DNA of 64,000 nt, taken from positions 12,859-76,858 of the forward strand of contig NYYS01000018.1 in NCBI GenBank assembly GCA_002685855.1. The letters run 5' to 3'. The notes below the pieces were generated by a model. It was not told the origin of the DNA. It did no database searches and worked only from the letters and a program-made list of their open reading frames with translations. Position 1 is the first letter of the stretch. Every line of letters starts with the position of its first letter. The translations under genes were made by a program, and so were the position numbers. The DNA is from Candidatus Woesearchaeota archaeon (GTDB lineage Archaea > Nanobdellota > Nanobdellia > Woesearchaeales > GCA-2685855). Below, piece after piece: positions 27,127-54,400 of this stretch.

Positions 27127-27795
27127 CTAGACGCCATTCCTCAACAGCCCAGGAATCCTTGCAAGAGACTCAACCTCATGCGCAAAATCAGCATGCCTCA
27201 CCACATACTCCCGAAGCATCTCGGGAGTATTCATCGCATACTCATGCGTAACAGCAAAAAACTCCAAATTCTCCGCCCCCATCTCCCTCGCAGCCAACAC
27301 CTCCTCCCCATCACACACCATATCCCCAAAATACCCCACCCGTCTTCCACCAAACTCAACAGCTAACTCATACAACTGCTGCGCCTTCCCATTTACCGGA
27401 CTCCGAACATTCCCCAACAAATGAACAAACCCATCCCGCTCAAACTTCATGCGAACCCGTTCAGGAGTATCATTCGTCACAAAATACAACCCCTCACCAG
27501 CAAGCTCAGCCTCCAACACCACCTCCCGCGCACCCGGAATCAAAGAAGACGGCCCCAGCTTCTCATACTCCACACCAAACTCCTCAACAACCTCCTCCAC
27601 CTCCTCCTCAGGATGCCCCATATCCCTAGCCAGTTTTCTCCAATCCATCGACTGTAGATTCCTCTGATAAAACCCTAAACTCACAGGAGCATGCCCCCGC
27701 TTCACAAGAAGATGATTCTCAAGATTAAACGCAGGCAGAAGCGAATCATACAACGTCCCATCCAAATCCAGCAATGGAATAAGCATCGAAGTCAT
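27127..27795 (-). CDS. HAD-superfamily hydrolase
   Basis: N-terminal 'LLDLDGTLYDS' (DxDGT) motif I. Overlaps the upstream thymidylate-kinase-like gene by 4 nt. Confidence 0.65.
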   Translation of the reverse strand: MTSMLIPLLDLDGTLYDSLLPAFNLENHLLVKRGHAPVSLGFYQRNLQSMDWRKLARDMGHPEEEVEEVVEEFGVEYEKLGPSSLIPGAREVVLEAELAGEGLYFVTNDTPERVRMKFERDGFVHLLGNVRSPVNGKAQQLYELAVEFGGRRVGYFGDMVCDGEEVLAAREMGAENLEFFAVTHEYAMNTPEMLREYVVRHADFAHEVESLARIPGLLRNGV

Positions 27796-28739
27796 TTATG
27801 CGGAAACTCTATCACACTTTTCAATTTTCTGATTCTTTCCCTCTCAAACGTATCCCAAATCTGCTCAGCACGCCTCGAAACATCCACATAAGAAAGACCA
27901 AACATCTCTCCATACTCCTTCTTCAACAAACCCAATGTCTCACGAATCGTAACCACCTCGGTCTGACTCGCATCCACATACCCTACCTTGGATCCATACC
28001 CTTCCAGTAACTCCCTCAAAGCATTCGACTGATAGTGCGGATTCAGCTTCATCTGAAACTCTAACCGTTCAAAACAACTATCATCCTTCTTCTTCCTCCC
28101 CTTAAGGCGCTCCATCAATCCAGAAGGATCCTGAATAACAGGAATAACCACAAGATTCGGCCCATTCTCCAAACAATAGTTATTTCCATGGATACTAACC
28201 ACATCCTCTCGTGTCAAACTTTCACGCCTTTCCTCAGCTTGCACTGGCTGATACACGAGACTGGAAACAACATTCCTACTCTGCACAATAATCTTCCCCT
28301 CATCAAGCAAAGGAAACAACACCTTCCGATGCAGTATCTCACGATCAAGCCCATACGCCGCTGCAGTCTCAGTTGCCGTATAATCAGAACCTGTCTTAAT
28401 AAACTCATCCCGAATCATCTTTCCAATCCCGCAATACGTCGGCTCAGACGTAAGCACAACATCATACAAAGACATATCAACATAGTAACGAGGATCTTTA
28501 TCACTTGTAAATATCGGATGCGTCCGCGAATTTTTCCAGAACTCATTCAAATCCAGCACCCGCAATCCCGTAATCTTGCACTGCTCAGCAACCGCATCCT
28601 GAATAACGCCCTTCCCACTCCCATCCAATCCATCAATAACAACAAACAATCCCTTTCTTCCATGAACCATTTTCTCATCCTCACCCGTTCCAAATAAGGA
28701 AACCACTTTCATTCTTCTCTCATCAACCCGTCTCATCAT
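27792..28739 (-). CDS. thymidylate kinase family protein (long form, ~100-aa C-terminal extension)
   Basis: P-loop 'VVIDGLDGSGKGV' in Tmk-like context. ATGA overlap with the ThyX-like stop supports a start at 28739; an alternative start is Met24 (28670). Confidence 0.55.
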   Translation of the reverse strand: MMRRVDERRMKVVSLFGTGEDEKMVHGRKGLFVVIDGLDGSGKGVIQDAVAEQCKITGLRVLDLNEFWKNSRTHPIFTSDKDPRYYVDMSLYDVVLTSEPTYCGIGKMIRDEFIKTGSDYTATETAAAYGLDREILHRKVLFPLLDEGKIIVQSRNVVSSLVYQPVQAEERRESLTREDVVSIHGNNYCLENGPNLVVIPVIQDPSGLMERLKGRKKKDDSCFERLEFQMKLNPHYQSNALRELLEGYGSKVGYVDASQTEVVTIRETLGLLKKEYGEMFGLSYVDVSRRAEQIWDTFERERIRKLKSVIEFPHK

Positions 28740-30610
28740 CCACCCTTCAACTTCCGCATCGAACGAATCTCTCCAACAGCCCTACCATAATCCAACTCAG
28801 TAGAACTATCAACAAACTTCATCGTCTTCCCAAGAACAGGAAGAACCTTTTCAGCACCCTTCGCAATCATCTGACACACCTGCTTATAGTTCAGATGCGC
28901 ACCCGGCTGCGTCCTCAACTCACAGATATGATGAAGCTCCCGTGCATTTACTGTAACAGGAAACCTTCCCAACGTACCCAACGGCAGCCCATACGAAGCA
29001 ACATGTGGATTAATCCTCTCAGCCGCCTCACCATACAGATCAGAAACATGCTGATAGATCTCATCCAACGGCTTGCTAAACCCTGCCATCCGAAACACCT
29101 CAGGAACAAAGAATCCCATATCCGGACTAAAATAACGGCTATCATACAACGTAAGAATCCGATGACGCCGCACATCACGAATCTCCCCAATCGTCAACAC
29201 CGCATTAATATCAAAACTAAACCGTTCAAACGCCCTCCCCGGCCTATGCCGCCGATTCGTCCGAACACCCTGATCTATTCCAGCATAGGCAAGAACAAGA
29301 CCTTCCATCTCCTCATGGTTCATCCCCCTCACCACCCTGTATGCACCCTGCTCACTCACCACAGGATCACGCTCTTTCACAATAGCCGCAACCAGATCCT
29401 CCAACTCATCGTTGCTCCAAATATCGATCGAAAAAGGAACACCTTCCTGAGAAACAGAGAGAACATCCTTCCCATACCCCAGACCACGATACCCCTCAAC
29501 AGTATATCCCTTCTCAGATGAAGACCAAAGCGGCTTATCCTTCCTCTCCTGATCATCCTCTCTCTCCACTTCAACACTCCTTGTCGTAGCCAGATACTTC
29601 AAAAAAGCCTGTGTTCTTCTACTCCTCGGATCAAGATCCTTCACCAACGGGCCCAACGAAGAAGATGAATCCCTCCGCAAAAGTTCAGCAATAACAACAC
29701 TCTCAGTAGTAGGAATACTATACCCATCCAACACAAGATCCCGAACATTCTGAGCATTCATCAACAAGGTCAACTGCGTCTTTGTTGCCAACGGCAGAAT
29801 ACTCCGCGCACGATCAAGCTGCATACTATTCAACGTCTTCTTATATGCCTGACTCAACTCCTCCTGACTTGCACCTTCACTCCCCGCTATATCCAACGCT
29901 TCAGCAACACCCGCAGAGAACTCATCAAACCTCAACACCTCCATCTCCATCGTCTTACGAACAATCTTCCCTTCATCTGTCCGAGTACTATTCAACCTTC
30001 GATACGAATCAAACAGCTGATCCATCACCTGGACAAACCGTTTTTCAAGTCCTGCCTTCTTAAACAACGGATCCACAAAATAGGGATACCTCCCCTCAAC
30101 CTTCTTATGAAACTTCCGATACCGTGTTGACTTCTCAATCCCTGCCAACAGACGATGATGCAACAGATGCATCGCCTGATACGCAGTCACATCCTCAAAA
30201 TTCACATTAATTGGAACAACCTGCGCAATAGAATCATCACCAAACTCACTAAACACCCGCTGATAAAAACCCGTGCCAAACGACTGAACAAGATCAGGAA
30301 CATTCAATTCATCAAACGCAGCCCTGCTCTCCTCATCTGCCAACACATCCTCCACAAGAGTAGTACGAACATCCTTTGGATTCCTACTCTGCTTCGACCC
30401 CAACGCACCCGAAAGAATCCCTAAAATTTTCGTAGAAAACACCGGCAGATCAAGATTCGAAAAAAACTTTTCCAACCTTGCCCCATCCTCTGTATCAAAC
30501 TCTCGCTGACGATACCCTAGTATATCACATAACTCCTCACGACTCATATCAACAAGTCCATTCGGTTTCTTCAACACATCAAGAACCATTTCCATCTTTA
30601 TTCCCCTCAC
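28736..30610 (-). CDS. thyX: FAD-dependent thymidylate synthase ThyX-family protein, unusually long (624 aa)
   Basis: C-terminal half carries the ThyX serine motif (RHRILTLYDS, 6 residues before the Ser) and 'NARELHHICELRTQPGAH'. N-terminal ~370 aa is unassigned, possibly a degenerate tandem ThyX duplication. Confidence 0.6.
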   Translation of the reverse strand: MRGIKMEMVLDVLKKPNGLVDMSREELCDILGYRQREFDTEDGARLEKFFSNLDLPVFSTKILGILSGALGSKQSRNPKDVRTTLVEDVLADEESRAAFDELNVPDLVQSFGTGFYQRVFSEFGDDSIAQVVPINVNFEDVTAYQAMHLLHHRLLAGIEKSTRYRKFHKKVEGRYPYFVDPLFKKAGLEKRFVQVMDQLFDSYRRLNSTRTDEGKIVRKTMEMEVLRFDEFSAGVAEALDIAGSEGASQEELSQAYKKTLNSMQLDRARSILPLATKTQLTLLMNAQNVRDLVLDGYSIPTTESVVIAELLRRDSSSSLGPLVKDLDPRSRRTQAFLKYLATTRSVEVEREDDQERKDKPLWSSSEKGYTVEGYRGLGYGKDVLSVSQEGVPFSIDIWSNDELEDLVAAIVKERDPVVSEQGAYRVVRGMNHEEMEGLVLAYAGIDQGVRTNRRHRPGRAFERFSFDINAVLTIGEIRDVRRHRILTLYDSRYFSPDMGFFVPEVFRMAGFSKPLDEIYQHVSDLYGEAAERINPHVASYGLPLGTLGRFPVTVNARELHHICELRTQPGAHLNYKQVCQMIAKGAEKVLPVLGKTMKFVDSSTELDYGRAVGEIRSMRKLKGG

Positions 30611-30834: not shown

Positions 30835-31869
30835 ATGATTGTGGGTGTAACCGGGTTCATGACCGCAGGCAAAGACACCTTTGCCAACTACCTTGTAGAA
30901 AAAAAAAGATTCATTCACATCTCACTCAGCGACATTCTCAGACAAGATCTAAAAAAAACAAAGAAAAAAATAACACGCCAAGCACTCATGGAACTCGGCA
31001 ACCTTCTCAGACAAAACCTCGGCGGAGGCATCCTTGCACAACGCTCCCTCCAAAAAATACAACCCGATGAAAACATCGTCATCAGCTCCATCGGCACCGT
31101 AGCAGAAGTAAAAGAACTCCAAAAAAGAAAAGACTTCATCCTCGTCTTCATCGACGCACCCCAGACCACAAGATTCCAACGCATCACCGTAAGAAAAAGA
31201 GAAGAAGACCCCTCAACACTCGAAGAATTCAAACAAAAAGAAAAAACAGAAAGCAAAGGAGGCGGCAAAGCCTACAGAGAATTCGACAACGTCAGAAAAC
31301 TCGCAAAAGTCATCATCAAAAACAACACAACACCAGAAGCATTCCACAAAAAGATCGACACCTTCATCACAGACTGGCAGCCAAAACTCCGACACAAACG
31401 ACCGAGTTGGGACCAATACTTTCTCGACATCGTAACATCTGTAGCACAACGCGCAACATGCGACCGAGGGAAAACAGCATCAGTAATCGTAAAAGACAAA
31501 CGTATACTCACAACAGGCTACGTCGGCAGCCCCCAAGGACTCCCCCACTGCGACGAAGTCGGCCACCTCTACAAAAAAGTAAAACACGAAGACGGACACA
31601 TCTCACAACATTGTGTACGCACACTCCACGGAGAACAAAACGCAATACTCCAGGCAGCAAAATACGGCATCCCCATCCAGGGCTCAACCATCTACTGCAA
31701 ACTCGCACCCTGCCCGGTCTGCGCAATGATGATCATCAACGCAGGAATCAAACGCGTAGTCTCAAAAATAGGCTACCACGGAGCCATCGACACACCAAAA
31801 ATATTCAAAAAAGCAGGCGTCAAATTCCAAATCCTCAACAAAAAGATCGAAGAGTATGCTAATCAATAA
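30835..31869 (+). CDS. fusion protein: N-terminal P-loop (d)NMP-kinase-like domain + C-terminal dCMP/cytidine deaminase domain
   Basis: P-loop 'GVTGFMTAGKDT'. Deaminase zinc motifs 'HGEQNAILQAAKYG' and 'LAPCPVCAMMII'. TATA-like 'tttttatacc' ~25 nt upstream. Divergent from the thyX operon. Confidence 0.65.
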   Translation: MIVGVTGFMTAGKDTFANYLVEKKRFIHISLSDILRQDLKKTKKKITRQALMELGNLLRQNLGGGILAQRSLQKIQPDENIVISSIGTVAEVKELQKRKDFILVFIDAPQTTRFQRITVRKREEDPSTLEEFKQKEKTESKGGGKAYREFDNVRKLAKVIIKNNTTPEAFHKKIDTFITDWQPKLRHKRPSWDQYFLDIVTSVAQRATCDRGKTASVIVKDKRILTTGYVGSPQGLPHCDEVGHLYKKVKHEDGHISQHCVRTLHGEQNAILQAAKYGIPIQGSTIYCKLAPCPVCAMMIINAGIKRVVSKIGYHGAIDTPKIFKKAGVKFQILNKKIEEYANQ

Positions 31870-38386: not shown

Positions 38387-39487
38387 CTATTTTTTTTCCT
38401 TTTCATACTCATCCACAATCATCTGCAACACACGCTTCGCACTCACCGCCTTCTCAATCTCACTCTTAGAAACCAATGCATAATGCTCAATATGAGAAAG
38501 CGCAACCTCAGACTCCTGAACATACACAAAATCCTTCCGACGCACAACACAAGGAGTAATAACTGTTGTCACCAACCCCCGAAGAGAATCCAACACCGAA
38601 CGAGAACACTCAGACGGATTCCGAACAAACAACAAATCCCCCTCACTAATCTTCAAAAAACTCTTAGCCCGAAATTCCCTTTTAGTAAAATTCTCCAACT
38701 TCTTCACTAACACCCCCTTCTTAGAAACAAAACCATACACCTCCCCCAACCGCCTCTCCACCTTTCGAACCTCGCCCTCCCTTGCAGCCAACCGCTTCCG
38801 CAACGCACGAATAGTCTGTTCCTTCTGATGAAACAAACTCTTCTCCTCCAACGGCTTCCTCTTCACCCGCTTCAACAACAACTTATACTTCTTCAACGCC
38901 TTCTTCAATCGCTCATTCTCATCAACCAACGCCTTCATCTCTACATCAACACCACTCCGAATCTGCTTCCCTGTCTTCCTCCGCGGAACACGCACAACCA
39001 TCTCAGCAGGCTTCTTCTCCAACACACGAACACACTCAACCATATTCATCTCAGAATGCTTTACCATAAACCCCTTCAACCGATCCCCCAACTCTTCCTT
39101 CCCAACCCGCACAAGAAACCGATCCACCTTTTCAAACAAACCACGAAACTGCAAAAAAACCACTCGTGCAGCAGCCAACGCATCCCGCTCATGATCATTC
39201 CCATACCTGAGACCCTTGCACAACTCCCTCTTCTCACCAACACCCAAATCACCCTGCAACATAACAACCTTCGCACCAAACGCAGCACCCAAACGACCTA
39301 CAGAAGAAGAAACAACCTTCTTATCTCCACCAACAAGAATCGGCTGCCCAAACGAACAGATCTCAGACACAATATCCGGCTGACTCCAATTCCGCACACT
39401 CTTCACACACACCACCTCCCCCCTAACCGAAAGAAGCGCAAACGCAGAAGTCGTACCCGGATCAAACCCAACAACTAAAGGAATCAT
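38387..39487 (-). CDS. RNase-H-fold DUF460-like protein with C-terminal coiled coil
   Basis: N-terminus 'VVGFDPGTTSAFALL' resembles the archaeal DUF460 / YqgF-like resolvase fold. Lys/Arg/Glu-rich coiled-coil tail. Confidence 0.4.
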   Translation of the reverse strand: MIPLVVGFDPGTTSAFALLSVRGEVVCVKSVRNWSQPDIVSEICSFGQPILVGGDKKVVSSSVGRLGAAFGAKVVMLQGDLGVGEKRELCKGLRYGNDHERDALAAARVVFLQFRGLFEKVDRFLVRVGKEELGDRLKGFMVKHSEMNMVECVRVLEKKPAEMVVRVPRRKTGKQIRSGVDVEMKALVDENERLKKALKKYKLLLKRVKRKPLEEKSLFHQKEQTIRALRKRLAAREGEVRKVERRLGEVYGFVSKKGVLVKKLENFTKREFRAKSFLKISEGDLLFVRNPSECSRSVLDSLRGLVTTVITPCVVRRKDFVYVQESEVALSHIEHYALVSKSEIEKAVSAKRVLQMIVDEYEKEKK

Positions 39488-39524: not shown

Positions 39525-40754
39525 CTACCACCCACGATCATTTCCCGTATACTTCATATAACTCTTAAAAATCTCACCGCACAACAACGCATCCGATGCA
39601 GGAATTACCTCGATACGTTTTGGTAAGTTTTCCTGATACACCGTATCAAGAGAAACTAGCCCATCGAGATAGGTTGCCCCGTCTAACTTAGACGGATCAG
39701 GGCAGACCGCATGTGAACACCAACCTTCCACTCGCTTGGCCCCATGTTTCTTAAGATACTGTGCAATCTCATTCTGTGTACCTGCACCAGAGATCATATC
39801 ATCAGGAATCACAAATACATCATACTCCGTTGCACTCTTAAGAATCTCCAGCATCCTTTTTCGACAAAACGATTTAAACCCTTGAATCTCTGCTCTACCT
39901 GCCTCCTGTCGGGGACGCTTCAAAATATACCCAATATCATCGAAATCCAATCCACAATCACGACCAAACCGTTCCACTCGTGTTTCAGCGCCATCATCAG
40001 GAATAATAAGATAGATCCTTCCCTCCTTGTTTTCCGCCTTCCTTCTTTTAAAATACTCAATCCACGGCTGCAGACTTTTCAACACCTCAACCTTCCTATC
40101 TCGAGGAGCATCAACCAAGCCATGTTTCTCTAAATTCACATACTTACTAGGATAAAATGGATTAATTACCTGAAACTCAATCCCCCGATCCCTACACTCA
40201 TCAACGATCTTGGAAGAATGCGGATCAATCGCAGTAATAACATCAATTCCGACATTCTTAAACATAGTAGCCATCAACGAAAGGGAATTCGCATCCTGGA
40301 ATCCCATCTGCTGATACTTCGGAACATTATGAGAACGCAAAAAAGAAAGATAGGGAACTGCCAGCATACGCCGTTCCGGCGGAGCCCTCCCAACAACATC
40401 AAACAACAACAACGTCTCCATCAGATGCGTATTCACAGAAGGATCATCGGTCGGCTCATACATATGCTTCACAACAACAGTATATGTTCCTTTCAAAGAA
40501 TCCAACGTTTCCTGACCCATCTCTATCTGCGGTTCCTTATCTGCAAAACGCCCCACAAAAAAAGGACTCCGTGGACTGCGTGGAATAGAAGGATCCTTCT
40601 TAGGAACCGGAAGTAAGGTCTCAACCCCTTCCATCTCATAGGTATTCCTTAGAATATCTGCAATCCTCTCAGTAAGATCAGAACTCCTCCCACTCCCGGC
40701 CACCAGTACCAAAGGAAGTCTTCTTCTTCTCATAGTTTTTCGCTTAAAGGACAA
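39525..40754 (-). CDS. phosphoribosyltransferase-domain protein (PRPP-synthetase-like)
   Basis: PRTase type I motif 'VFVIPDDMISGAGT' and upstream 'GIDVITAIDPHS' reminiscent of Prs. 409 aa, longer than typical Prs. Confidence 0.4.
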   Translation of the reverse strand: MSFKRKTMRRRRLPLVLVAGSGRSSDLTERIADILRNTYEMEGVETLLPVPKKDPSIPRSPRSPFFVGRFADKEPQIEMGQETLDSLKGTYTVVVKHMYEPTDDPSVNTHLMETLLLFDVVGRAPPERRMLAVPYLSFLRSHNVPKYQQMGFQDANSLSLMATMFKNVGIDVITAIDPHSSKIVDECRDRGIEFQVINPFYPSKYVNLEKHGLVDAPRDRKVEVLKSLQPWIEYFKRRKAENKEGRIYLIIPDDGAETRVERFGRDCGLDFDDIGYILKRPRQEAGRAEIQGFKSFCRKRMLEILKSATEYDVFVIPDDMISGAGTQNEIAQYLKKHGAKRVEGWCSHAVCPDPSKLDGATYLDGLVSLDTVYQENLPKRIEVIPASDALLCGEIFKSYMKYTGNDRGW

Positions 40755-40820: not shown

Positions 40821-42359
40821 CTATCGATACCGAGAAAGATCCGGCCCAACCTCCTCCTGACCCGCCTGCCTTTTCACATCAGCAGCAACCTTCCTGCCAA
40901 GCAACCCCTCCAACCGGGAAAGAGACACACTCTTCACACCTGCAACATCCTTAATACCACTCCGAAACAACTTCCTTGCTCTTACACGACCAATATTCCG
41001 CAACCGCAACAACCCCAAAAGCTCCTCCTTTGCACCATGCCGCAACCGCGTCCGCAACACCTTCAACTCTTTCAGAATATCATGAAACTTCAACAACACA
41101 CACATCTCCTCAGCCGCATACACCAACCAATCCGCAGCATCCAACTTTGCATGAATCTCCCCCGGACGAACATTCAACGCATTCAATAATTCTTCCTCGC
41201 TCTTCTCATTCATCCACTCATCAAAAAAGAAAGCAGTCTTCACACTATTCAAAAAATCCTCATACTCACTACTATGATCCATCGGCACAGAAGTAATAAA
41301 CACCTCCTCATTCAACCCCACAAGCTCCTCCACCCAATCCAACTCCTTAACACGAACACGCAACAACGGCCGCATCTCCAACGTAGAACTCACCATCTGC
41401 AAAAAACTAAATACATTCCTCTTCTTCCCTGTCGCCCGCTTCAAAGCCTCAATAATCAACTGAGCCGTATACGGATCCAAGTACAACTCACTAACCCTCT
41501 TCCCAACCGGCGTAGCAACAAGAGACCCCTCTTCACCCAGATCAGAAGCAGACACAAACCCATCATCCTTTTTTCCACCCTCAACACGAATAAACTCCCA
41601 CTCCTCCAACTGCTCCAACGTCTTTCCAATCAACCAATGAATCTTTTCACTATCCCCATAACTATGCGCATAAAAAGTACGATCAAAAAAATCCTTCAAA
41701 GCAGACTCAGACAAACAATACTCAGTAGCAATCAACGTCAACACATACGTACGAAACACCGGCTCAACCGCCAACTTCGACAAAATCTCCTCCGGCTCAC
41801 CCTCAACATACCGCTCCCGAATCTCCTTCTTCTGCCCATCAGAAACAGCAATCGTAATCGCCTGCCCCTCAGTCTCCTTCCCCGGCCTCCCCGCCCTCCC
41901 AATCTGCTGATGATACTCCAACACAGGAATCGGACTCATCCCCCACCCCCCACTATACCGTTTCAGATCCCTCACCACAACACGAAACGCAGGAAGATCA
42001 ACACCCATCGCCAAACTCGGAGTCGAACAGATAACATGCAAACGAGAATCCCGAAACCCCTCCTCAATCAACCTCCTCTGAGAACTCGTCAACCCTGAAT
42101 GATGAAACGCAATCCCCCGCTCAACACACTTCGCAAGCCGCTTACACTGCCGCGTAGCAGAACCCACCCCCTTCAACACCTTCTCTGAAAGAACAGCCAG
42201 CTCAGACAGAACAGGAAGCTTCAACGCAATCTGCTCCGCCTGCGACTCAGCACCCCTCCGCGTATTACAAAACACCAACGCCTGCCGATCCTGCTGCACA
42301 GTATCCAAAGCAATATTCAAAACCGCATCCGGCGTTGTCTGGGGAATAGGGATCTTCAT
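40821..42359 (-). CDS. Hel308/Ski2-type helicase, C-terminal portion only (RecA2, WH, ratchet, HhH); N-terminal ATPase domain absent
   Basis: Starts at RecA2 ('QALVFCNTRRGAE'). Motif VI 'QQIGRAGRPG'. C-terminal HhH 'LRLRNIGRVRARKL'. Stop codon 12 codons upstream of the ATG in frame; TATA-like box ~35 nt upstream. Confidence 0.7.
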   Translation of the reverse strand: MKIPIPQTTPDAVLNIALDTVQQDRQALVFCNTRRGAESQAEQIALKLPVLSELAVLSEKVLKGVGSATRQCKRLAKCVERGIAFHHSGLTSSQRRLIEEGFRDSRLHVICSTPSLAMGVDLPAFRVVVRDLKRYSGGWGMSPIPVLEYHQQIGRAGRPGKETEGQAITIAVSDGQKKEIRERYVEGEPEEILSKLAVEPVFRTYVLTLIATEYCLSESALKDFFDRTFYAHSYGDSEKIHWLIGKTLEQLEEWEFIRVEGGKKDDGFVSASDLGEEGSLVATPVGKRVSELYLDPYTAQLIIEALKRATGKKRNVFSFLQMVSSTLEMRPLLRVRVKELDWVEELVGLNEEVFITSVPMDHSSEYEDFLNSVKTAFFFDEWMNEKSEEELLNALNVRPGEIHAKLDAADWLVYAAEEMCVLLKFHDILKELKVLRTRLRHGAKEELLGLLRLRNIGRVRARKLFRSGIKDVAGVKSVSLSRLEGLLGRKVAADVKRQAGQEEVGPDLSRYR

Positions 42360-42424
42360 CGTACAAAACGTTTAAAAAAAGAAAGCAGTTCACCTATAAA
42401 AGATTTGGGTCTGCAGTACAGCAA

Positions 42425-42454
42425 CAGGCTCAAGCCCACTATGGGGCTGTAGTG
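42425..42454 (+). repeat. 30-bp direct repeat copy 1 (includes first 12 nt of tRNA-Pro plus 18 nt of its leader)
   Basis: 'caggctcaagcccactatggggctgtagtg' is exactly repeated at 42516-42545. TATAAAAG box at 42395-42402 precedes copy 1. Confidence 0.6.
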
Positions 42455-42515
42455 GGTAGGCACCTTTCGCTCGCGTTGCTTTAAAGGTGCGCGAAATGCG
42501 TGGGTTTCGCCTATG

Positions 42516-42545
42516 CAGGCTCAAGCCCACTATGGGGCTGTAGTG
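42516..42545 (+). repeat. 30-bp direct repeat copy 2 (functional 5' end of tRNA-Pro)
   Basis: Exact copy. Continues into the full tRNA. Confidence 0.6.
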
Positions 42546-42638
42546 TAGTTTGGAAACACCCCTCCTAACAGAGGATGTTGAACACTATCACTGGTGGTTC
42601 GGGGCCGCCCGACCGGAGTTCGAATCTTCGCAGCCCCA
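42534..42638 (+). tRNA. tRNA-Pro: tRNA-Pro(CGG) with a ~32-nt non-canonical intron between D-arm and anticodon stem
   Basis: Acceptor GGGGCTG/CAGCCCC + discriminator A. D-arm GTGT-AGTTTGGAA-ACAC. Anticodon arm GGTGG-TTCGGGG-CCGCC (U33, anticodon CGG, G37). Variable CGAC. T-arm CGGAG-TTCGAAT-CTTCG. Extra 42560-42592 not accommodated by the cloverleaf. Confidence 0.5.
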
Positions 42639-42745
42639 TTTTTTCAATCTCACATATTCCTAATAATAATCTTTGCAGTCGTAGACAGGATCCAGGTCAT
42701 AATAAAACTAAGAAAATAAGAAAAGAAAAAAAGCAGGAGGAAGTT

Positions 42746-44152
42746 CTATTCAGAATCCACAAGCTTTTGAAAAAACCCTTTGAACGTTATCCAGCCATCT
42801 CCTCCAGATTCAATTTCCCCTCTTCCTTCCCAGACAACAGATTCCCAGGTATGCGTTCGAATGAAGAATCCTCCCCAGCCCTTATAGGTGTGGTTACCAA
42901 TATCCTCCCATTCTCCGTGGGTGCTAAAATCGACATCAGCTCCATTTGTCCAGAGAGTTCCTTCACCATCTCTAACCTCGAAATCTCCTGTTCCTGCAAC
43001 TTCTACTCTTCCCTGTCCCCAGTAGTTTACACCTCCGCTTCCTTCCCTTCGAACTCGTGTCCGATCATAAGAGAGGAACGGGTCGTAAACTACTTCAGGA
43101 GAATGTAATCCGGCTATCCTTTCAGCAATCTCTGAAATATTTTCTGTGTTCCAATAATTTTGCCGAGCATCGACTTCATAAGGCTGATCATTCCAGATTC
43201 CAACCGGGGACCAGATGTTGCTATACCTTATCAGGTGTTTTGTTCCTTGTCTTATCTTATCTCCAACAATAGAAATATCCCTTTCCTCATTATCGAAGAA
43301 ATTACTATAAAAGATAGAAACATTTGAGGAATTCTCAATCAGCAACCCTGTATCCACATCGGTTACAGTCAATTCGCCAATGTCTGCCTCAGGCGCATTT
43401 ATTAGTGCAATACCTGTACTATATATCTGGCCATGTTGTATACGAACTTCTTCAATCTCAATATTTGCTTCATCAGACCACTCATCTGAGTATTCTATCC
43501 ATATGCCGTTAATATCAAAAATTGAAATAAGCACATTATACCCTATTTCTACAAAATCAACGTCCTGTGTGAAAATTCCTGTATCATAATTTTTAATTGT
43601 AAGATGATGAATCTCCATGTTATCTGCATCTCTTATATAAACACCCGTCCCATACCACGCTCCAATGCCATTAATAAGGCCATCATAGATACTAACTTCA
43701 TCAACATCATTGGTCTCGACACCATATCTCACATTTTCAATTTCAACTTCTTCAATCAAGAGAGAGTCAGAATCTAAAACGACAATTCCAGAATTCATAT
43801 TTCCCAAAAAACTATTTTCGAAATAAAGATCATCAACATACTGGGCATCGATTCCTTTTGAAAAATCTTTAAGAATACAATCTTCAATTTCAACATCCTC
43901 AGTGTCTCTGATAAAAAAACCCGTACTTTCATTATCTCCAACTAAAACAGTATCTTCACACTCAATTTCAATATCATGATCTCCTGTCACAAAGATCGCT
44001 TCATTAAGCTCATACTCACCACTACAAAAGTTCGTATCTTCTGTTATAGTCATCCCAGAATAGGGCTCAACACAATCTGCTGAAACAGAAGAAGAAAATA
44101 AAACATTCAAAATAAGTATACAAAACATGCCGAAAAAGAGTCTCTTCATCAT
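42746..44152 (-). CDS. secreted right-handed parallel beta-helix repeat protein (pectate-lyase/NosD-like fold)
   Basis: Signal peptide. Repeated 'D.E.I..C.I....GI' beta-helix rungs ('NVEIHHLTIKNYDTGIF', 'DFVEIGYNVLI'). Balanced composition, flanked by two intron-containing tRNAs. Confidence 0.5.
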   Translation of the reverse strand: MMKRLFFGMFCILILNVLFSSSVSADCVEPYSGMTITEDTNFCSGEYELNEAIFVTGDHDIEIECEDTVLVGDNESTGFFIRDTEDVEIEDCILKDFSKGIDAQYVDDLYFENSFLGNMNSGIVVLDSDSLLIEEVEIENVRYGVETNDVDEVSIYDGLINGIGAWYGTGVYIRDADNMEIHHLTIKNYDTGIFTQDVDFVEIGYNVLISIFDINGIWIEYSDEWSDEANIEIEEVRIQHGQIYSTGIALINAPEADIGELTVTDVDTGLLIENSSNVSIFYSNFFDNEERDISIVGDKIRQGTKHLIRYSNIWSPVGIWNDQPYEVDARQNYWNTENISEIAERIAGLHSPEVVYDPFLSYDRTRVRREGSGGVNYWGQGRVEVAGTGDFEVRDGEGTLWTNGADVDFSTHGEWEDIGNHTYKGWGGFFIRTHTWESVVWEGRGEIESGGDGWITFKGFFQKLVDSE

Positions 44153-46176: not shown

Positions 46177-47793
46177 ATGAAAAAAGAGGCCATACTACTT
46201 ATTTCAGTACTTTTAATTCTACCAATAACCTTAGCCGTCGACTGTGCAGATGTTCCTTATCCAGGAGCAGACGGATATCTCAACGAAAGCTATACACTAA
46301 CAGAAAATATTACCGCAAGCTCAAGGGGTCAGGTAAACAGATGTCTTAAGGTAACTGCAGATGATGTAACCCTTGATTGTAATGGATATACAATCGACAG
46401 CAAAAACATCAAACGCTCCAGCTTTTCAAGCATCGGCTATGACAGAATAACCGTCAAAAACTGTAACTTTATCAACTCAATAAGTAATGCTTTTGGCATC
46501 AATGCAGCAGAAGATGCACAAATACTCGACAACACCTTTGCAGATGATGATGCAGGATGGTCTGGTGACGGTGCACTTATTTCAGGAAACACCTTCCGTG
46601 ATCGATTTGGTATTGACGGTGATAATGCTGTAATAGAAAACAATGAATTTATAGTGAACCTGGGTATCGGCCAAGTGGCATTAAACATAGGTGGCTATTC
46701 CACGAATAATCTCATACGTTTCAACACCTTTCGTCAACCCGAACAAATAGGCGCAGGATTAAAACAAGGGCATGCCATCTATACTACCACTAGCGCTCAC
46801 TTTAATAATATTACAAACAACACTATTGAAGGGTTTAACACAGGAATAAATTTCTGGACATTTGCAGGATATACTGAGATCTACCATAACTACTTTGCGA
46901 ATAACTCTGTGAACGATTCCAACTTTGCAGTTCACGGAAACTATGGAGATCTTAACGAAGTTGCTGATAACACCTTTGCAGCAAACACCGTTGGGGTCTA
47001 TTTTGAAGGATCTGTTGACAATGTACTGTGGGGAAACAATTTTCAGTTTCCTGACGTTGTAAACTACTGGGATACAGACAACAACCATTACTGTAGTGGA
47101 GGAATAGAGAACGACTATGAATTTATGGATAATCTCCTGAATATGACCTTAGAAGAGTTTCATTCCTTTGTTATACAAAAAGAAGCAGATCTTTCCCTGC
47201 TCCACCTTGAACTTCCGTTCACCTACGAACTTCTCAACGAAACAAACAACTACTCTGTGAACATTACCTTGCCAGACTGTAATCAGACAAAGGATAATCA
47301 ATCCAACCAAAGCCTGGCGATGAGTGGAGATTTTCTGAAAGAGCTTTCAGACCCTGTCCTTTTTGATCTCGTGGAGCTTCAAAATGGCTTTCTCATGGCT
47401 CTGGATCCTTGGGATGGATTTAAATACTTCTACAATGAAAATGCCTGGAACGGCGATGTTATGGTCCATCAACCAAACGGACAAACAGATTACTGGGTGT
47501 GGGAAGTCCATTCAACACCAAACACCTACCGGGTTTGGGTCTATATTCCTGTTGACCCCATCTATGTCGGAAGCTATGCTAAACAAGCAATGTACTATAT
47601 CAAACATGCAAACGGCATGGACAAAGTAATCCTGGATCAACGCCTGGCAGGAAGTGATTGGGTAAACTTAGGAGACTATACTTTTGATGAATCCAGCTAT
47701 CAGGGTGTCGCCCTAATTGGAGGAAACGGACGAGGACATACCTTGGCAGATGCATTTAGGGCAGAAAGTATTGGGCCGCCACAGTACGATTAG
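46177..47793 (+). CDS. secreted parallel beta-helix repeat protein (538 aa)
   Basis: Signal peptide 'AILLISVLLILPITLA'. Repeated 'N..I.NN.F' beta-helix rungs. Many N-x-S/T sequons. Balanced composition; AT-rich promoter region upstream. Confidence 0.5.
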   Translation: MKKEAILLISVLLILPITLAVDCADVPYPGADGYLNESYTLTENITASSRGQVNRCLKVTADDVTLDCNGYTIDSKNIKRSSFSSIGYDRITVKNCNFINSISNAFGINAAEDAQILDNTFADDDAGWSGDGALISGNTFRDRFGIDGDNAVIENNEFIVNLGIGQVALNIGGYSTNNLIRFNTFRQPEQIGAGLKQGHAIYTTTSAHFNNITNNTIEGFNTGINFWTFAGYTEIYHNYFANNSVNDSNFAVHGNYGDLNEVADNTFAANTVGVYFEGSVDNVLWGNNFQFPDVVNYWDTDNNHYCSGGIENDYEFMDNLLNMTLEEFHSFVIQKEADLSLLHLELPFTYELLNETNNYSVNITLPDCNQTKDNQSNQSLAMSGDFLKELSDPVLFDLVELQNGFLMALDPWDGFKYFYNENAWNGDVMVHQPNGQTDYWVWEVHSTPNTYRVWVYIPVDPIYVGSYAKQAMYYIKHANGMDKVILDQRLAGSDWVNLGDYTFDESSYQGVALIGGNGRGHTLADAFRAESIGPPQYD

Positions 47794-47944: not shown

Positions 47945-48456
47945 GGGGAAAACCAGAGCCAAAGCAAGATCTTTCTAGCCTGAGCGATCTCGAACTCTTC
48001 CAGGAACTCGGAAAAAGACTCGCAGAAAAACACCAAACAGATCCTTCCACTCTTCTCATCCCCACACCCACTCCCCAAAACACCATCCCTCTCCCCATCT
48101 TTACAGGATCCCTTTCTCCCCTAGAAGCCGTTGTCAAATACCTCCACGAAAACCACAAACTCTCATTCACCGCAATCGGAATCAAACTCAACCGCTCGGT
48201 AAAAACAATCTGGCAAGCCTACCAAACAGCAAAAAAGAAGATGCCAGAACCCTTCACACCCTTCAAAGGAGAAACACTCCCCCTCTCAGAACTCTCAAAC
48301 AGAACCTTCTCACTCTACGAAAACCTCGTTCTTTACCTTTCAAAAAAACACCGCCCGAAAGAGATCGCCCTCCTCATCAACAGACCCCAACGAAACATTA
48401 ATACAATCCTTAGCAGAGCACGAAAAAAAGATCAACAAACAAAAACAGAATCATGA
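47932..48456 (+). CDS. small HTH protein with sigma-70 region-4-like helix-turn-helix segments; candidate regulator of the downstream giant gene
   Basis: 'LSFTAIGIKLNRSVKTIWQAYQTAKKKM' and 'EIALLINRPQRNINTILSRARKK' resemble region-4/LuxR-type HTH. Overlaps the start of the 2750-aa ORF by 4 nt. Confidence 0.35.
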   Translation: MQKNRGKPEPKQDLSSLSDLELFQELGKRLAEKHQTDPSTLLIPTPTPQNTIPLPIFTGSLSPLEAVVKYLHENHKLSFTAIGIKLNRSVKTIWQAYQTAKKKMPEPFTPFKGETLPLSELSNRTFSLYENLVLYLSKKHRPKEIALLINRPQRNINTILSRARKKDQQTKTES

Positions 48457-51400
48457 ATAAAAAACAAAAAGCAAAACAAATACCCTCAGAAGGGAAATTA
48501 CTCCTACTAGTCCTATTCATACTTACAACTACACTTATCTACTACATCCAGCCAGCCTTCATCGCATTCATCATCTACGACGAAACCAGCATCACACTTC
48601 AACTCAACCAAACAATAACAGAAGATACATTCCTGCCTCTCGAAATCGGAAAAGTAGACTCCATCCATATCAAAGGCCATCTTATAGGAAACGGAACCGC
48701 AACCATAAAACTCGACCAACCAGGAAAAAACCTTCTCATCTATGAGAAAACAGGCTCTAAAGTAAATCCCCTCATCCCCAACGATCCACCCTCCGACTCA
48801 CCCCTTCAAACAACAATAACCTACGGAAACAACCCAAACTTCGACACAGACAACAACGGATGGGAACTCACCACTAATGCAATCGACTACACCGTAGAAA
48901 CAACCAACACCCAAAAATACAACCAAAGCACACTCTGCACTCGCTGGGCACTTAACAACCAATACATAGAATGCAACGGAAATGCAATGTGCTGCCTCTT
49001 CACAGGCATTGAACAAAGAACAGAACAATGGAACGCCCCTTTCAGCCTTCACGACCAACTCCTTGGAGTAAAACAAGCAAACCTCATCACAGCACAACTC
49101 ATCTCAACAACAATCAACTACACCAACATCACAACACAACCCGGATCAACACAATCCCTTCCAGGGTATTTCATCGACAACACTCTCCAATCGCCAATCG
49201 ACCACTGCGGAGAAACCTGCACCTTTGAAGGAACCCAGGATCCCCGTCTAAAAATAGAACTCCACAACGCAGTCCTTTACATCGACACAATCACCTACAC
49301 CCCCTACTCCGAAAACAAACCACCCACACTCCAAAAAAGCACCCACAAACTCTACTCCGGAGCAACACTCAAATTCACAGAACTCTTCCACGATCCAGAT
49401 AAAGACAATCTCACAATAACAATCACAAACACAACAAACCTCACACTAACAAAAACCCACCAAGGATATAAAATAGAAGGAAAAAAAGGAAACTACACCC
49501 TTGAAATAGAAGCCAAAGACCACCGCTACACAATAACAGAAAAGATAAACCTCACCCTCAAGGATTTCAACCTGGAAACCCTCCTCAACAAAAACAAAAA
49601 AGAAAAAACTGATGAAAAACCCTCTGTAAAGATAACCGGCCCCGCCGAAATCAAAGGAATCTACAAACACCCTCAAAAACAAAGCCCCTTCAAAGGAATA
49701 CAATTCGGCGCATTCATCCAAGAAGGAGATGTAGAAATAGGAATAAAAAATAAAGGCCTGCTCCTCCTCAAAGATGCAAACTACGCCGGCCTTGAAGAAA
49801 TACAGGTCAGAACACCCCCAAGCAGAAGATATGCCACAGACATCATCGCAGTAAACGACATCCAACTCAAAGAAGCAGTCTTTGTACTCCCCAAACAATC
49901 ACCAATAACCCAAATACAACACTGCCCCAACTGGAACTTTGAAGAACAAAGCTGTCCAAAATGGGAAGATGCAGGAGTGGCATTTGCACAAAACCAAACC
50001 CATGTCTGGTGGGTAGCAGACCACTTCTCAGGATGGGTAGGACTCAGCTACGGCTTTGACGATTTCGAATATGATGACGATAATAACTATTGTACAGACA
50101 CACCATCTCTTGAAAACTGGATGACAGTTTCCTGTGAAGCAAATGCGGGCTCGTTCAACCTCACAACAGACAACTGCTACTTAGGATCCTCCTGTGGAAA
50201 TGTAACCAACACAGACTCACAAGATGCTGCAAACGATGTAACAATAGTCTACAACTCCAATCTCTCTTCAGCAGAGATCGTCGACCAAAGAGTCTACTTC
50301 AAAGAGGACTGTGCAAACCCCCTCTCCGGAGGAAACGGAGATACCTACATAATGGGATTAACAAGAGGATCAGGAGCAGCAGTTGCCAGAATGGGCTTCA
50401 ATAGTGAAGGCCTTCTTGGTTGCCAACGAAGAAATATGTCAGACAGCCTAGCAAACTGCGCAGGACAAACAGCACAAAACCTCACCTGTGGACGATGGTA
50501 CTATCTCGAAATCCATTACGACACAAGAGTAAACAACCTTACCTGCTATGTCAACGGAACACCCTTCTGCTCAGAAGAAGGAGTAGTCATATTCAGAGAC
50601 AACGTAACAATAGAGGCCATAGGAATCCTCCCAACTTCAGACTACCAAAACAACGAAACATTCTTCCTCGACGAATACCACACCGCCGACAAATACCTTG
50701 GAGGCTACCCTTGGGTAGAAGATCTCAACCACACAACCAGATTCGTCACACCCGGCACCGACCTAACAATAAACGCAACAATCTACGACAACGATGTCAT
50801 CAACGGAACCCTCGGCACCGTGCTACTAGAAGGAAACTGGAGCGGAGTAATGACCAACTATACCCCCACAAGTTCAGGATCCAAATACTTCTACAAAGTC
50901 GGACGAGGAAACTTCTCAAGCAACGACTCAGTAGGCTACCGCTGGTATGCAAACGACACCATCAACCAACAATACTACTCCCCCCTGCAAATAATCACAA
51001 TAGAAAACAGATTCATCCTTGACACAGATCAAAATAACCTCACAGATCTCTTTCTCAGCAGCCTTCTTCTCGCAGACGTAGACAACGACTCAGACCTCGA
51101 CCTCTATCTCTCAGGAGCAACAGCAATACCTGGCGGAAACGTATTTTCCGGACTCTACCTCAACAACGGATCTGGACTCTTCACAGACACACTTCAAGCC
51201 AACTTCATTGCACTCAGAGAAGGATCATCCACCTTTGGCGATACAAACAATGATGGACTCCCCGACCTCATAATCTCAGGATTAAATAGCGGATCAAGAT
51301 ACACAAGAGGCTATATCAACAATCTATCAAATCCAGGAACATTCTACAACGACACCTCATCGAGTTACAATCCTCTTTCCCTTAGCAGTTTTGCACTTGC

Positions 51401-54400
51401 AGATTATGATGCAGACGGAGACTATGATCTCATCGCAACAGGACTTTTTGCAGCCGGAGAAGGAGCAGGAATTAACACATTTACAGATGGTGTATCAGCT
51501 CTTGATACAACCCATATCAACAACTTCACAAACGTATCCCGTCCAGCACTTCTATTAGCAGATATAGATAGTGATGGAGACCTTGACATCTTCATGACAG
51601 GACAAACAGAAGCCACCCCCCTCTACACAGGAATCTACCTCAACAACGGCTCAGGAAGATACATACAAGACCAATCACAGGCAAACCTCCTCGCAATCTT
51701 TAATGGAGCAGCAGTAGCAGCAGACATAGATGCAGATGGAGACATCGACATCATCATCGCAGGAGACTCAAACGAAACAACCACAAAAAACTACACAATG
51801 GAGGTCCTCCTCAACGACGGAAATGGAAACTTCTCAATAGACAGTCAACAAGACAACCTCACCGGACTCGATTTTGCTTCACTCGCAGTAGGAGATATCG
51901 ACCTCGACGGAACAATAGACATCTTTGCAATGGGAAACACCTCAAATGGACCTGCTGCATTCACCTATCTCAACAACGGATCCGGCTACTTCAAAGAAGA
52001 CGAATCATTCTCAGCAATGCCCCTTCATTACGGAAGCGCAGCCCTTGCAGATATTGATAACGACGACGACCTTGATCTTATCATCTCAGGAACAAACAAC
52101 ACCTATCGTAACTACACTCTTGTCTACAAAAACCAGATCAACAGAAACATGACCAACCGCCCCCCTGTAGCTCCCACAGGCATCGACTGGAACAGATCCG
52201 GAAGCAACGGCAAACTCGAACTAAACTGGTCCATAGGAACAGACAATGCAACAGGAGCAAACGCAGTCACACCTGACAACGCAATAACCTATCACCTCAG
52301 TCTCGGAACAACTCCCGGCGCATCAGACATCATGAGCAGATCCTATGGAGGATTCTCCAACCCGAGCAACGGCCACCTTGGAAACAGACTCCAATCAAGA
52401 AACCTCTCACTCTACCTCGAAGGAACCTACTATGCTACCATCCAATCAATAGACGCACAAGGAAAACTCTCCGACGACAACCTAACATTACTAACTAATC
52501 AACCACCAACACATTCAGCCCCCATACTCAACACCTCCCCCCTCAACAACAACCGAACAAGTGAAAACTTTACCTGCTACAACCAAACAACCTACGACTT
52601 CGACAACGACACAATCGTAAACGCCTACAAGTTCTACAGAAACAGCACTTCAGCAGTCATCGTGCAAGCAAGCTTTGAGGACAACAGCACAACCATTGAA
52701 AACTTCCCACCGCTCACAGAATCAGGAACAAACTATACAAACGGCTACCAAGGAAGAGGAATCTACATAGATGACAACGACCAACTCAACTATAGTGCAA
52801 CCTCCCTTCTTACAGCTGAAGAGGCCACGATCGAGCTCTGGACACGCTTCGACTGGGACCCCGGAGCAACCGGAGACACAAACCACACACTTATATCCTT
52901 CGGAAACCAATCAAGCTATCAGAATACAGGAATACTTTTCTACAACGACGTATACAATCTCCTCGCCCTTACCCTATTTGGTGAAACAGGATCTCCTCGT
53001 ACAGTAAGCTACGGAATAAGCGATATCAACCCAAACGAATGGCACCACATACTCGTATCATGGGACTACAACAACGGAACAGGAATAGAGATGGAACTCT
53101 ACCTTGATGGAGCTCTCGTAGACAACACTCCCTCTTCCCAAACAGCCCTTACTGTGAATTCAGGAGGAACAGGAGGAGACGGTGTCTTCATAGGGAGATA
53201 CAACGACATAGCCTATGCAAACGCAACAATTGACGAACTCTACATCTGGAACGTTCAGATGGGCCTTGAAAAAGCAGTCCAAAGCAATGCAACAAACTAC
53301 GGCTTTGTTCCATCTGGATCAACCAACAAAAACGAAACCTGGACCTGCGAAGTAACACCTCAGGACAGATACACAAGAGGCCTCCCATCAAACTCCAGCC
53401 AGATCCTAATGCTCTCACAACTACAAGTTGATCTAAACGACCCAGACAACGGAACAACAAACCAGCTTTTCACAAACGTATCCTACAATTGCAGTGCAGA
53501 ATCCTCTTCAGTTTTATCAAATATAACCCTCTATCCTGACTTCGAAGGATGGCAACAGAACGGAACAACCACCACCTCAGGACTCAACAACTCCATAAAC
53601 ATAACAAGATCCTACGAAGGATTAATCACAGGAGATAAACAACGCTTTACAGACGGAAGAATTCTCTGGAACTGTAGAGTAAATGATTCATCAGGAGAAT
53701 CAGCCATAGCAACAACAAATTCCACATTCAGCAACTGGGACCTCGGAAACCACTCCAACACTTCCCTCATCAACAACCGCCTCAGTCTCATAAAAAACAC
53801 CTCAAACGAATATGAAAACCTAACAGGAACATTCGACAGCAGAGTCTTCGATGGCGGTGTAGGAGCCTACTGGGATAACTTTTCATGGAAACCTCTCACA
53901 CCCTATGGTGTTGGCCTCTTCAACACCACAAACATACTCTATCACTTTGACAACTCTTCAGATCTGCAAGAAGACAACGGAACCTATACCGATGCAACAC
54001 TCCAGGGCACCAACTGCTCATCAAGCGGAACATCGGTTCCACTATTAGACACAGAAAAGATCTTCGGAACATTTGCAGTCGATTTCGACGGAACAGACGA
54101 CTATATCTCCTGTAATGACACAACTTTATTAAACCTTTCAGGAATATACTCGATCTCGTTCTGGATCAGAACCAATGCAACAAACGTTCCCATATTCGCA
54201 AAAAATGATTATGCAGGAACTCCTGCAGGTTTCCAATTCCAAATAACCTCAAACGGCACAGCAGCATTCAAGGCAACACGATCAGGAACAACAATGTACC
54301 TAGAAGGAACAACAAACATATCCGATGACAGATGGCACCACATCTCAACAAGACACATACAACTTGTCATGCCCGGACCATCATTATCACAGAACATATC

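Follow-up and report, generated by a model that had tools for sequence, protein, structure and literature searches.

When a helicase gene encodes everything except its first ATPase domain, is it a broken gene, an assembly error or one half of an enzyme built from two genes? The question is raised by an open reading frame (ORF) in a 64,000-nt stretch of contig NYYS01000018.1 (assembly GCA_002685855.1) from a Candidatus Woesearchaeota archaeon; the whole of this stretch is called the window here. The first-pass annotation of the window had described the gene as a Hel308-type helicase lacking its RecA1 domain and had offered two explanations, a split gene whose other half lies elsewhere or a truncation caused by a local rearrangement. 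We find that the gene is an intact C-terminal subunit of the DNA-repair helicase Hel308/Hjm, neither a broken gene nor a sequencing error. The reading that we prefer, with a probability of roughly 85%, is that it is the C-terminal subunit of a Hel308/Hjm that was split into two genes in the ancestor of the Woesearchaeota-type Nanoarchaeota. The features of the gene are as follows.

40821-42359, minus strand: gene for the C-terminal Hel308/Hjm subunit, 512 aa, ATG start (ORF call, Pfam, PDB alignment to 2zj2/2p6r/2va8)
41880-42308, minus strand: RecA2 core, Pfam Helicase_C, aa 18-160, with motifs IV, IVa, V and VI inside it
41034-41408, minus strand: ratchet domain, Pfam Helicase_dom4_arc (PF21280), aa 318-442 (E 8.6e-30), aligning with domain 4 of Hjm and Hel308
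40863-41012, minus strand: helix-hairpin-helix (HhH) domain 5, aa 450-499 (Pfam HHH_5, weak, below the gathering score)
42360-42424, minus strand: 5' flank of the helicase gene, with two in-frame stops and a TATA-like box

A C-terminal half with a conserved 5' boundary

The Hel308 identity, originally read from motif VI (QQIGRAGRPG), is borne out by Pfam, by PDB alignment and by Foldseek, and the winged-helix, ratchet and HhH domains are all present. The best PDB sequence matches are P. furiosus (Pfu) Hjm, A. fulgidus (Afu) Hel308 and S. solfataricus (Sso) Hel308 (E ~1e-72; each ~700 aa), with the alignment running end to end over the window protein. An AlphaFold2 model made with an alignment of 37 homologues as input has a mean predicted local distance difference test score (pLDDT) of 87.8, and with this model Foldseek places Hel308/Hjm structures at the top (E 1e-32, ~495 aligned columns). 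The Hel308-type NCBIfam model NF002654 gives the window protein 443.7 bits, under its equivalog cut-off of 887; a full-length relative, P0163, also falls under it at 760 bits. Within RecA2, motif IV reads ALVFCNTRR and motif V reads STPSLAMGVDLPA; motif IVa, which is specific to Hel308 (F/YHHAGL type), is AFHHSGL at aa 84-90, and motif VI occupies aa 151-160 (nt 41880-41909 of the window). Motifs IVa and VI are invariant between the window protein and the 37 split homologues, and in the alignment the motif VI columns Q151, G154, R155, G157, R158 and P159 are unchanged in all 37.

No DEAD or ResIII domain is found by Pfam scan in the 512-aa protein, and RecA1 with its Walker A, DExH and SAT motifs is not in the polypeptide, whose alignment to Hjm begins at residue ~216. 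In the PDB sequence search aa 16 lies opposite residue 229 of Pfu Hjm and aa 20 opposite residue 238 of Afu Hel308 (E 2e-72). Since the protein starts opposite internal residues of Hjm and Hel308, about 216 N-terminal residues are missing, where ~200 had been estimated. It had also been held that the ORF starts precisely at RecA2, which is not the case: domain 1 of Hjm comprises residues 1-197 and domain 2 residues 198-399 (Oyama et al., PMC2636818), and the window protein begins opposite residues ~216-218. The architecture is RecA2 minus its first ~20 residues, then winged helix, ratchet and HhH. As for its extent, given as 40821-42420, the ORF spans 40821-42359, and the longer range adds 61 nt of upstream DNA.

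Upstream of the ATG there are indeed in-frame stops, a TAA at 42372-42374 (codon -5) and a TGA at 42390-42392 (codon -11), but none at codon -12, where one had been placed. The TATA-like element proposed at ~35 nt upstream is present as CCTATAAAAG at 42393-42402, that is, -35 to -44 relative to the ATG; it is assigned by resemblance to the consensus only, and being near-palindromic could serve the divergent tRNA gene as well. The 385 nt upstream of the gene (42360-42745), up to the next minus-strand ORF at 42746, hold stops in all frames and this opposite-strand tRNA gene. The next co-directional gene (42746-44152, minus strand) encodes a beta-helix protein and is followed by long oligo-T tracts. 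A promoter of its own is plausible for the helicase gene from these sequence signals, because of the TATA-like box, the divergent tRNA gene upstream and the oligo-T tracts that follow the next co-directional gene.

In metagenome assemblies a frameshift or a chimeric join that masks a full-length gene is always possible a priori, and nothing beyond this speaks for it here. There are many stops in all three upstream frames, and neither the 173 nt separating the start codon from the tRNA gene nor the 106 nt past that gene has room for 216 aa. Six-frame translation of the whole window showed no RecA1-like coding capacity with either of two hidden Markov models (HMMs), the first built from the N-halves of Pfu Hjm (100% identical to 2ZJ2 residues 1-228), Afu and Sso Hel308, and the second from 120 N-parts of full-length DPANN relatives. 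Pfam finds no DEAD or ResIII domain in any of the 50 window ORFs scanned (the helicase ORF and 49 others). A regular-expression search in six frames for Walker A with DExH matched solely a MoxR-type AAA ATPase at 2174-3172. With stops in all upstream frames and no RecA1 signal in the window, a sequencing or assembly artefact, which the first-pass annotation had named as a finding that would overturn its reading, is excluded with next to no doubt, and the RecA1 half does not lie in these 64 kb.

The same truncated gene recurs widely. A homologue search for the window protein was made in 5.8 billion proteins and the best 120 were examined: all are 460-556 aa long and combine Helicase_C with domain 4 but lack a DEAD domain; their identity to the window protein is 49-58%, and those that are named come from metagenome-assembled genomes (MAGs) of Woesearchaeota or Nanoarchaeota. 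No record holds an exact copy of the window protein. The 37 aligned homologues start within a few residues of one another and share more than 70 invariant columns, among them motifs IV, IVa, V and VI. In a scan of one genome per GTDB species, 80 loci were found in 80 Woesearchaeota/Nanoarchaeota species, and in all of them the match begins at query residue 1-16. The 5' boundary is thus shared by at least 120 clusters of proteins and by the genomes of 80 species, and the architecture recurs in independent assemblies from NCBI, ENA, JGI and Logan. The comparison of synteny in relatives that had been suggested gives the same boundary under upstream neighbours that vary (rubredoxin-like and inositol-phosphatase genes, other tRNAs), together with a recurrent downstream linkage to DUF460, NMD3 and NUDIX genes in the window and relatives alike.

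The identical start under differing upstream neighbours rules out a local tRNA-associated rearrangement as the cause of the truncation. On this account, the second of the two original explanations, the gene would be a recent truncation or a pseudogene, made by the rearrangement that also doubled the start of the neighbouring tRNA-Pro gene. At 66-280 nt upstream there are indeed a perfect 30-nt duplication and a tRNA gene with an intron, and tRNA genes are often found at the 5' end of the gene in relatives (15/76 loci). The duplication is, however, unique to the window, the ORF is intact with every invariant family position kept, and the start is the same in the clusters and species counted above, so that we regard this explanation as very improbable.

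The missing half and its fit to the C-terminal half

A generic Hel308 N-half query was judged prone to swamping by full-length proteins, and a chimeric query (consensus N-half joined to the C-half of the window) was chosen instead. This surfaced the nearest one-piece relatives, proteins of 702-750 aa, several of them named Aenigmarchaeota, whose C-part shares 42-46% identity with the window protein. Their N-parts were then made into a profile, which was run against 1.84 billion representatives (clustered at 50% identity). Among the full-length matches it recovered P0278, a protein of 225 aa with DEAD only and the C-terminus ...SWRPVKLHQGIYLNDRIEFRK. The 120 best relatives of P0278 have a median length of 221 aa, with DEAD/ResIII as their sole domain; identity to P0278 is 68-93%, save for one 274-aa outlier at 55%, and the names given are 'DEAD/DEAH box helicase [Candidatus Woesearchaeota archaeon]' or Nanoarchaeota. 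They all stop at one point, ...RPVKLxxGIYLxxxIEF, and conservation reaches at least 97% at 88 of 225 positions, PTxSGKT (Walker A), DEIH and SAT among them. Many other representatives matched by the Hel308 N-part have 1100-1260 aa (P0241, P0243, P0248, P0249, P0256 and others), far longer than Hel308, and may contain inteins or fusions to other domains.

The neighbourhood of the N-half is conserved, with an H+-pyrophosphatase gene upstream and a convergent cluster of FtsY, prefoldin and phosphoribosyl pyrophosphate (PRPP) synthase genes downstream. It is the same 221-aa gene call on 24 and 19 independently assembled contigs, and the convergent gene starts a few nt from its stop. The two halves are not neighbours: an HMM search of the loci of 84 relatives (1.29 Mb) found no N-half within 10 kb of the C-half, and no Helicase_C gene was found near the N-half in the loci fetched with 10-kb flanks. 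Two weak N-half matches near C-halves were rejected, L033:5960-6214 as the start of an ordinary DEAD-box helicase and L072:18053-18313 as an antisense ORF within a SIS-domain gene.

Some of the neighbouring gene families do occur at both loci. In the window a PRPP-synthase-like gene (409 aa, with the N-terminal domain alone recognised) follows the C-half, and a canonical PRPP synthase is found in the conserved cluster adjoining the N-half in relatives. DUF460 genes also lie near both halves. The stretches concerned are 39525-40754 and 38387-39487 (both minus strand) in the window and L085-L089, L094-L097, L103 and L095:2623-3900 in relatives. Either chance or a remnant of the ancestral one-piece locus may account for this.

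The two families fit together as the parts of one protein. NF002654, which is the best-matching family for both halves despite their scores below its cut-off, is matched over positions 9-217 by the N-half P0443 (283 bits) and over positions 223-707 by the window protein (444 bits), compared with 760 bits for a one-piece relative. When the two families are aligned across the junction, one variable loop holds both the ends of the N-halves and the starts of the C-halves, without gap or overlap. The median lengths of 221 aa (N) and 522 aa (C) add up to 743 aa, against 727 aa for the one-piece relatives. The N-halves end opposite Hjm residues ~216-217, where the window protein begins; with domain 2 starting at residue 198, the N-subunit therefore holds RecA1 and the first ~20 residues of RecA2 (the RPVKL strand and a hairpin). 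Both halves are intact and conserved rather than decaying, to judge from the 70 and more invariant columns of the C-halves and the 88 highly conserved positions of the N-halves. In one Woesearchaeota MAG (JACPMR01) both are present on separate contigs, the N-half P0443 on JACPMR010000010.1 (318 kb) and the C-half P0089 on JACPMR010000015.1 (311 kb). With the conserved boundary and a ~221-aa RecA1 family in the same taxa, this supports the first of the two original explanations, a split gene with its other half elsewhere, and we infer that an N-half is present in the genome from which the window comes.

In neighbour-joining trees the split C-halves form one clan (bootstrap 0.92) and the split N-halves form one clan (0.96) against the full-length relatives. 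This structure agrees with one ancestral split and joint inheritance of the halves thereafter, but is no more than indicative, given how the sequences were sampled.

Could the two chains be joined after translation by a split intein? DNA polymerase B of N. equitans is joined in this way, a precedent within the Nanoarchaeota and the point in favour of this idea. No intein fragments are found at the break point, there being no extra sequence at the C-terminus of the N-half or the N-terminus of the C-half. The halves meet exactly at the homologous position and their summed length is that of the one-piece protein. As this leaves no space for intein fragments, joining by protein splicing is excluded, with only a vanishing chance in its favour.

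Several points weigh against a single split enzyme. The N-half is not within these 64 kb. JACPMR01 is the single same-assembly pair found, and as it is a MAG, mis-binning is conceivable; no second N/C pair from one assembly was found, further look-ups giving other assemblies. The sequences used for the clan test were drawn from best-hit lists and are biased samples. Finally, the window protein departs from its family at the C-terminus. In the alignment of 37, relatives end in a conserved KRKGQxxLxD[YFW], resembling a PCNA-interacting (PIP) box, and Pfu Hjm reportedly needs such a box to bind PCNA. In the window protein this tail is largely deleted (40821-40870; alignment columns ~585-603), the C-terminus reading ...GQEEVGPDLSRYR with just the L and the Y kept. 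Judged by this tail, the coupling to PCNA may differ.

A proposed two-chain Hel308 and its relation to known split genes

On the preferred reading, the course of events would be as follows. An ancestor of the Woesearchaeota-type Nanoarchaeota would have broken its Hel308/Hjm gene in two. The N-subunit of ~221 aa, with RecA1 (Walker A, DEIH, SAT) and the first ~20 residues of RecA2, would now be supplied from a distant locus, typically beside the H+-pyrophosphatase gene and the convergent FtsY-prefoldin-PRPP synthase cluster. The window gene would give the rest of RecA2, with motifs IV, IVa and V and the arginine fingers of motif VI, and the winged helix, ratchet and HhH domains. The two chains would associate non-covalently, the terminal strands of the N-subunit completing the RecA2 sheet and tethering the halves, and the ATP cleft would be rebuilt with Walker A and B on one chain and motif VI on the other. 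The product would be an ordinary 3'-5' fork-repair helicase. The physical association of the halves, their assembly as a heterodimer and the activity of the enzyme are predicted here from the genes.

In superfamily 2 (SF2) helicases the glutamine and arginines of motif VI contact the ATP bound to RecA1. That they do not vary among the C-halves speaks for continued use of a RecA1 partner, and this bears on the alternative that the C-half alone is an ATP-independent protein (DNA-binding, strand-annealing or PCNA-associated) and that the ~221-aa RecA1 protein has an unrelated job. The halves are never adjacent, neither in the 84 C-half loci (10 kb) nor in the N-half loci with 10-kb flanks, which would suit separate functions, and Hel308 is reported to anneal besides unwinding (PMC10484726, PMC13623763). 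But Q151, R155 and R158 do not vary in the C-halves, the N-half still carries the opening RecA2 strands, which form no fold by themselves, and the halves cover complementary ranges of one model and show parallel clan structure. We consider a stand-alone function of each half unlikely.

A further proposal, which keeps the two-chain enzyme and is slightly less doubtful but still improbable, is that the break in RecA2 goes beyond neutral fragmentation of the genome and makes the ATPase a dissociable module. The C-subunit, with its DNA-binding ring, ratchet and HhH brake, would then be an ATP-independent binding or annealing factor when alone and a translocating helicase only once the RecA1 subunit docks by strand complementation. 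The switch between annealing and unwinding described for Hel308/HELQ would be set by the supply of subunits from two separately regulated loci.

The archaeal Hel308/Hjm enzymes (Ski2-like SF2, COG1204; 2P6R, 2VA8, 2ZJ2) are the best sequence and fold matches of the window protein, which shares their domains 2-5, motifs IV, IVa, V and VI, the ratchet and the HhH; the N-half and C-half families together carry the full helicase motif set. The known enzymes differ in being single chains of ~700-720 aa, whereas here the protein is cut ~20 residues into RecA2 and encoded at unlinked loci, and the window protein is without a C-terminal PIP-like tail. The closest one-piece relatives are the full-length DPANN Hel308 proteins of Aenigmarchaeota type (P0121-P0240), which with the C-part identity and 702-750 aa given above correspond to N plus C. 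They are unsplit, and the N-part tree and the C-part tree both set them apart from the split proteins in the bipartition.

Reduced DPANN genomes are characterised by split genes, the usual examples being reverse gyrase, Lhr, PolB, tRNA synthetases and Dph2. They are well known in Nanoarchaeota and in DPANN at large (PMC6349945; PMC3655853), and the split Hel308 is a further case of them and no surprise in kind. The naturally split reverse gyrase of N. equitans, whose subunits form an active heterodimer (PMC4117796), resembles it in being a DNA enzyme containing an SF2 helicase, encoded in a reduced DPANN genome by two unlinked genes (NEQ318/NEQ434; PMC4117796; PMC3655853). It belongs to another enzyme family and is split between whole modules (helicase and topoisomerase), whereas the Hel308 break lies inside a RecA fold, so that the ATP site would be shared by the chains, and is found in a different, mesophilic and far larger clade. 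The 'large helicase-related protein' (Lhr) is also split in Nanoarchaeota (NEQ003/NEQ409; Nst1 172/239; PMC3655853). Like Hel308 it is an SF2 DNA helicase that contains a winged helix and a domain 4, and it occurs in the same phylum-level group; it is of another family, and its split sites differ between two nanoarchaea where Hel308 has one conserved site across the clade.

No description of a split Hel308, in DPANN or in Woesearchaeota, was found in the searchable literature, and it is absent from a 2026 review of Hel308/HELQ. In a 2024 survey of archaeal Ski2-like helicases, sequences had to reach 60% COG coverage and partial ones were left out (PMC10946056).

Should the two-chain enzyme prove real, annotation would have to be corrected, as thousands of entries, those named 'helicase-related protein' and the short ones named 'DEAD/DEAH box helicase', would be halves of one repair helicase, and Hel308 should not be scored as absent or partial in these genomes. 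The split would provide a clade-wide, synapomorphy-like marker separating the Woesearchaeota-type Nanoarchaeota from their Aenigmarchaeota-type relatives. It would also offer a natural fragment-complementation system, cut within a RecA fold, for the study of SF2 core assembly and of Hel308 control.

The tRNA-Pro locus and other features of the window

The region upstream of the helicase gene is bounded by a divergent tRNA gene, which is not part of the helicase.

42533-42639, plus strand: tRNA-Pro(CGG), with a ~32-nt intron between the D arm and the anticodon stem (ARAGORN with introns; exon match to relative L007)
42425-42454 and 42516-42545, plus strand: two perfect 30-nt direct repeats, each made of 18 nt of leader and the first 12 nt of tRNA-Pro

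This is the sole tRNA found in the 64 kb, and the position of its intron is non-canonical; its exons match the tRNA-Pro(cgg) of L007 (L007:13067-13163), whose intron sits in the anticodon loop. Default ARAGORN and Rfam both miss it, and Rfam finds no tRNA or small RNA family at threshold either in the whole window or in 42300-42800. With introns allowed, ARAGORN calls it Val(AAC); this call was rejected, as the exons match the tRNA-Pro of the relative and the spliced versions are called Pro.

The first copy of the repeat begins ~25 nt downstream of a TATAAAA box (42395-42401). The 61-nt spacer between the copies (42455-42515) contains a TTTAAA-centred palindrome and folds stably. No further copy of the 30-nt repeat occurs in the window, and it is absent from the 103 loci compared. 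The duplication arose locally and has no connection with the break in the helicase; an integration scar, a small insertion and an alternative 5' exon are all conceivable.

Of 76 relatives, 15 have a tRNA gene at most 500 nt upstream of the C-half (L007, L008, L010, L014, L017, L018, L029, L038, L039, L044, L046, L061, L066, L072 and L084), compared with a background in the same loci of 0.039 tRNA genes per 500 nt, although the cases are not phylogenetically independent. These tRNAs are mostly Asn(GTT) or Ile(GAT), the rest being called Gln, Ser and Tyr. As a weaker variant of the proposal of a dissociable ATPase, the original break might have occurred at a hot spot of tRNA-gene rearrangement, which would explain why tRNA genes so frequently flank the 5' end of the C-half.

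Elsewhere in the window, a 2750-aa ORF at 48453-56705 (plus strand) with FG-GAP, laminin-G and disaggregatase-related repeats is probably a giant surface protein, and it is flanked by beta-helix/NosD-like secreted proteins (42746-44152, 46177-47793). A 624-aa ThyX (28736-30610, minus strand) has its Thy1 domain confined to the C-terminal third, an unusual fusion, and a 344-aa fusion (30835-31869, plus strand) combines a nucleotide-kinase-like P-loop domain with a dCMP deaminase. A thymidylate-kinase-like gene at 27792-28739 adjoins these ThyX and dCMP deaminase fusions.

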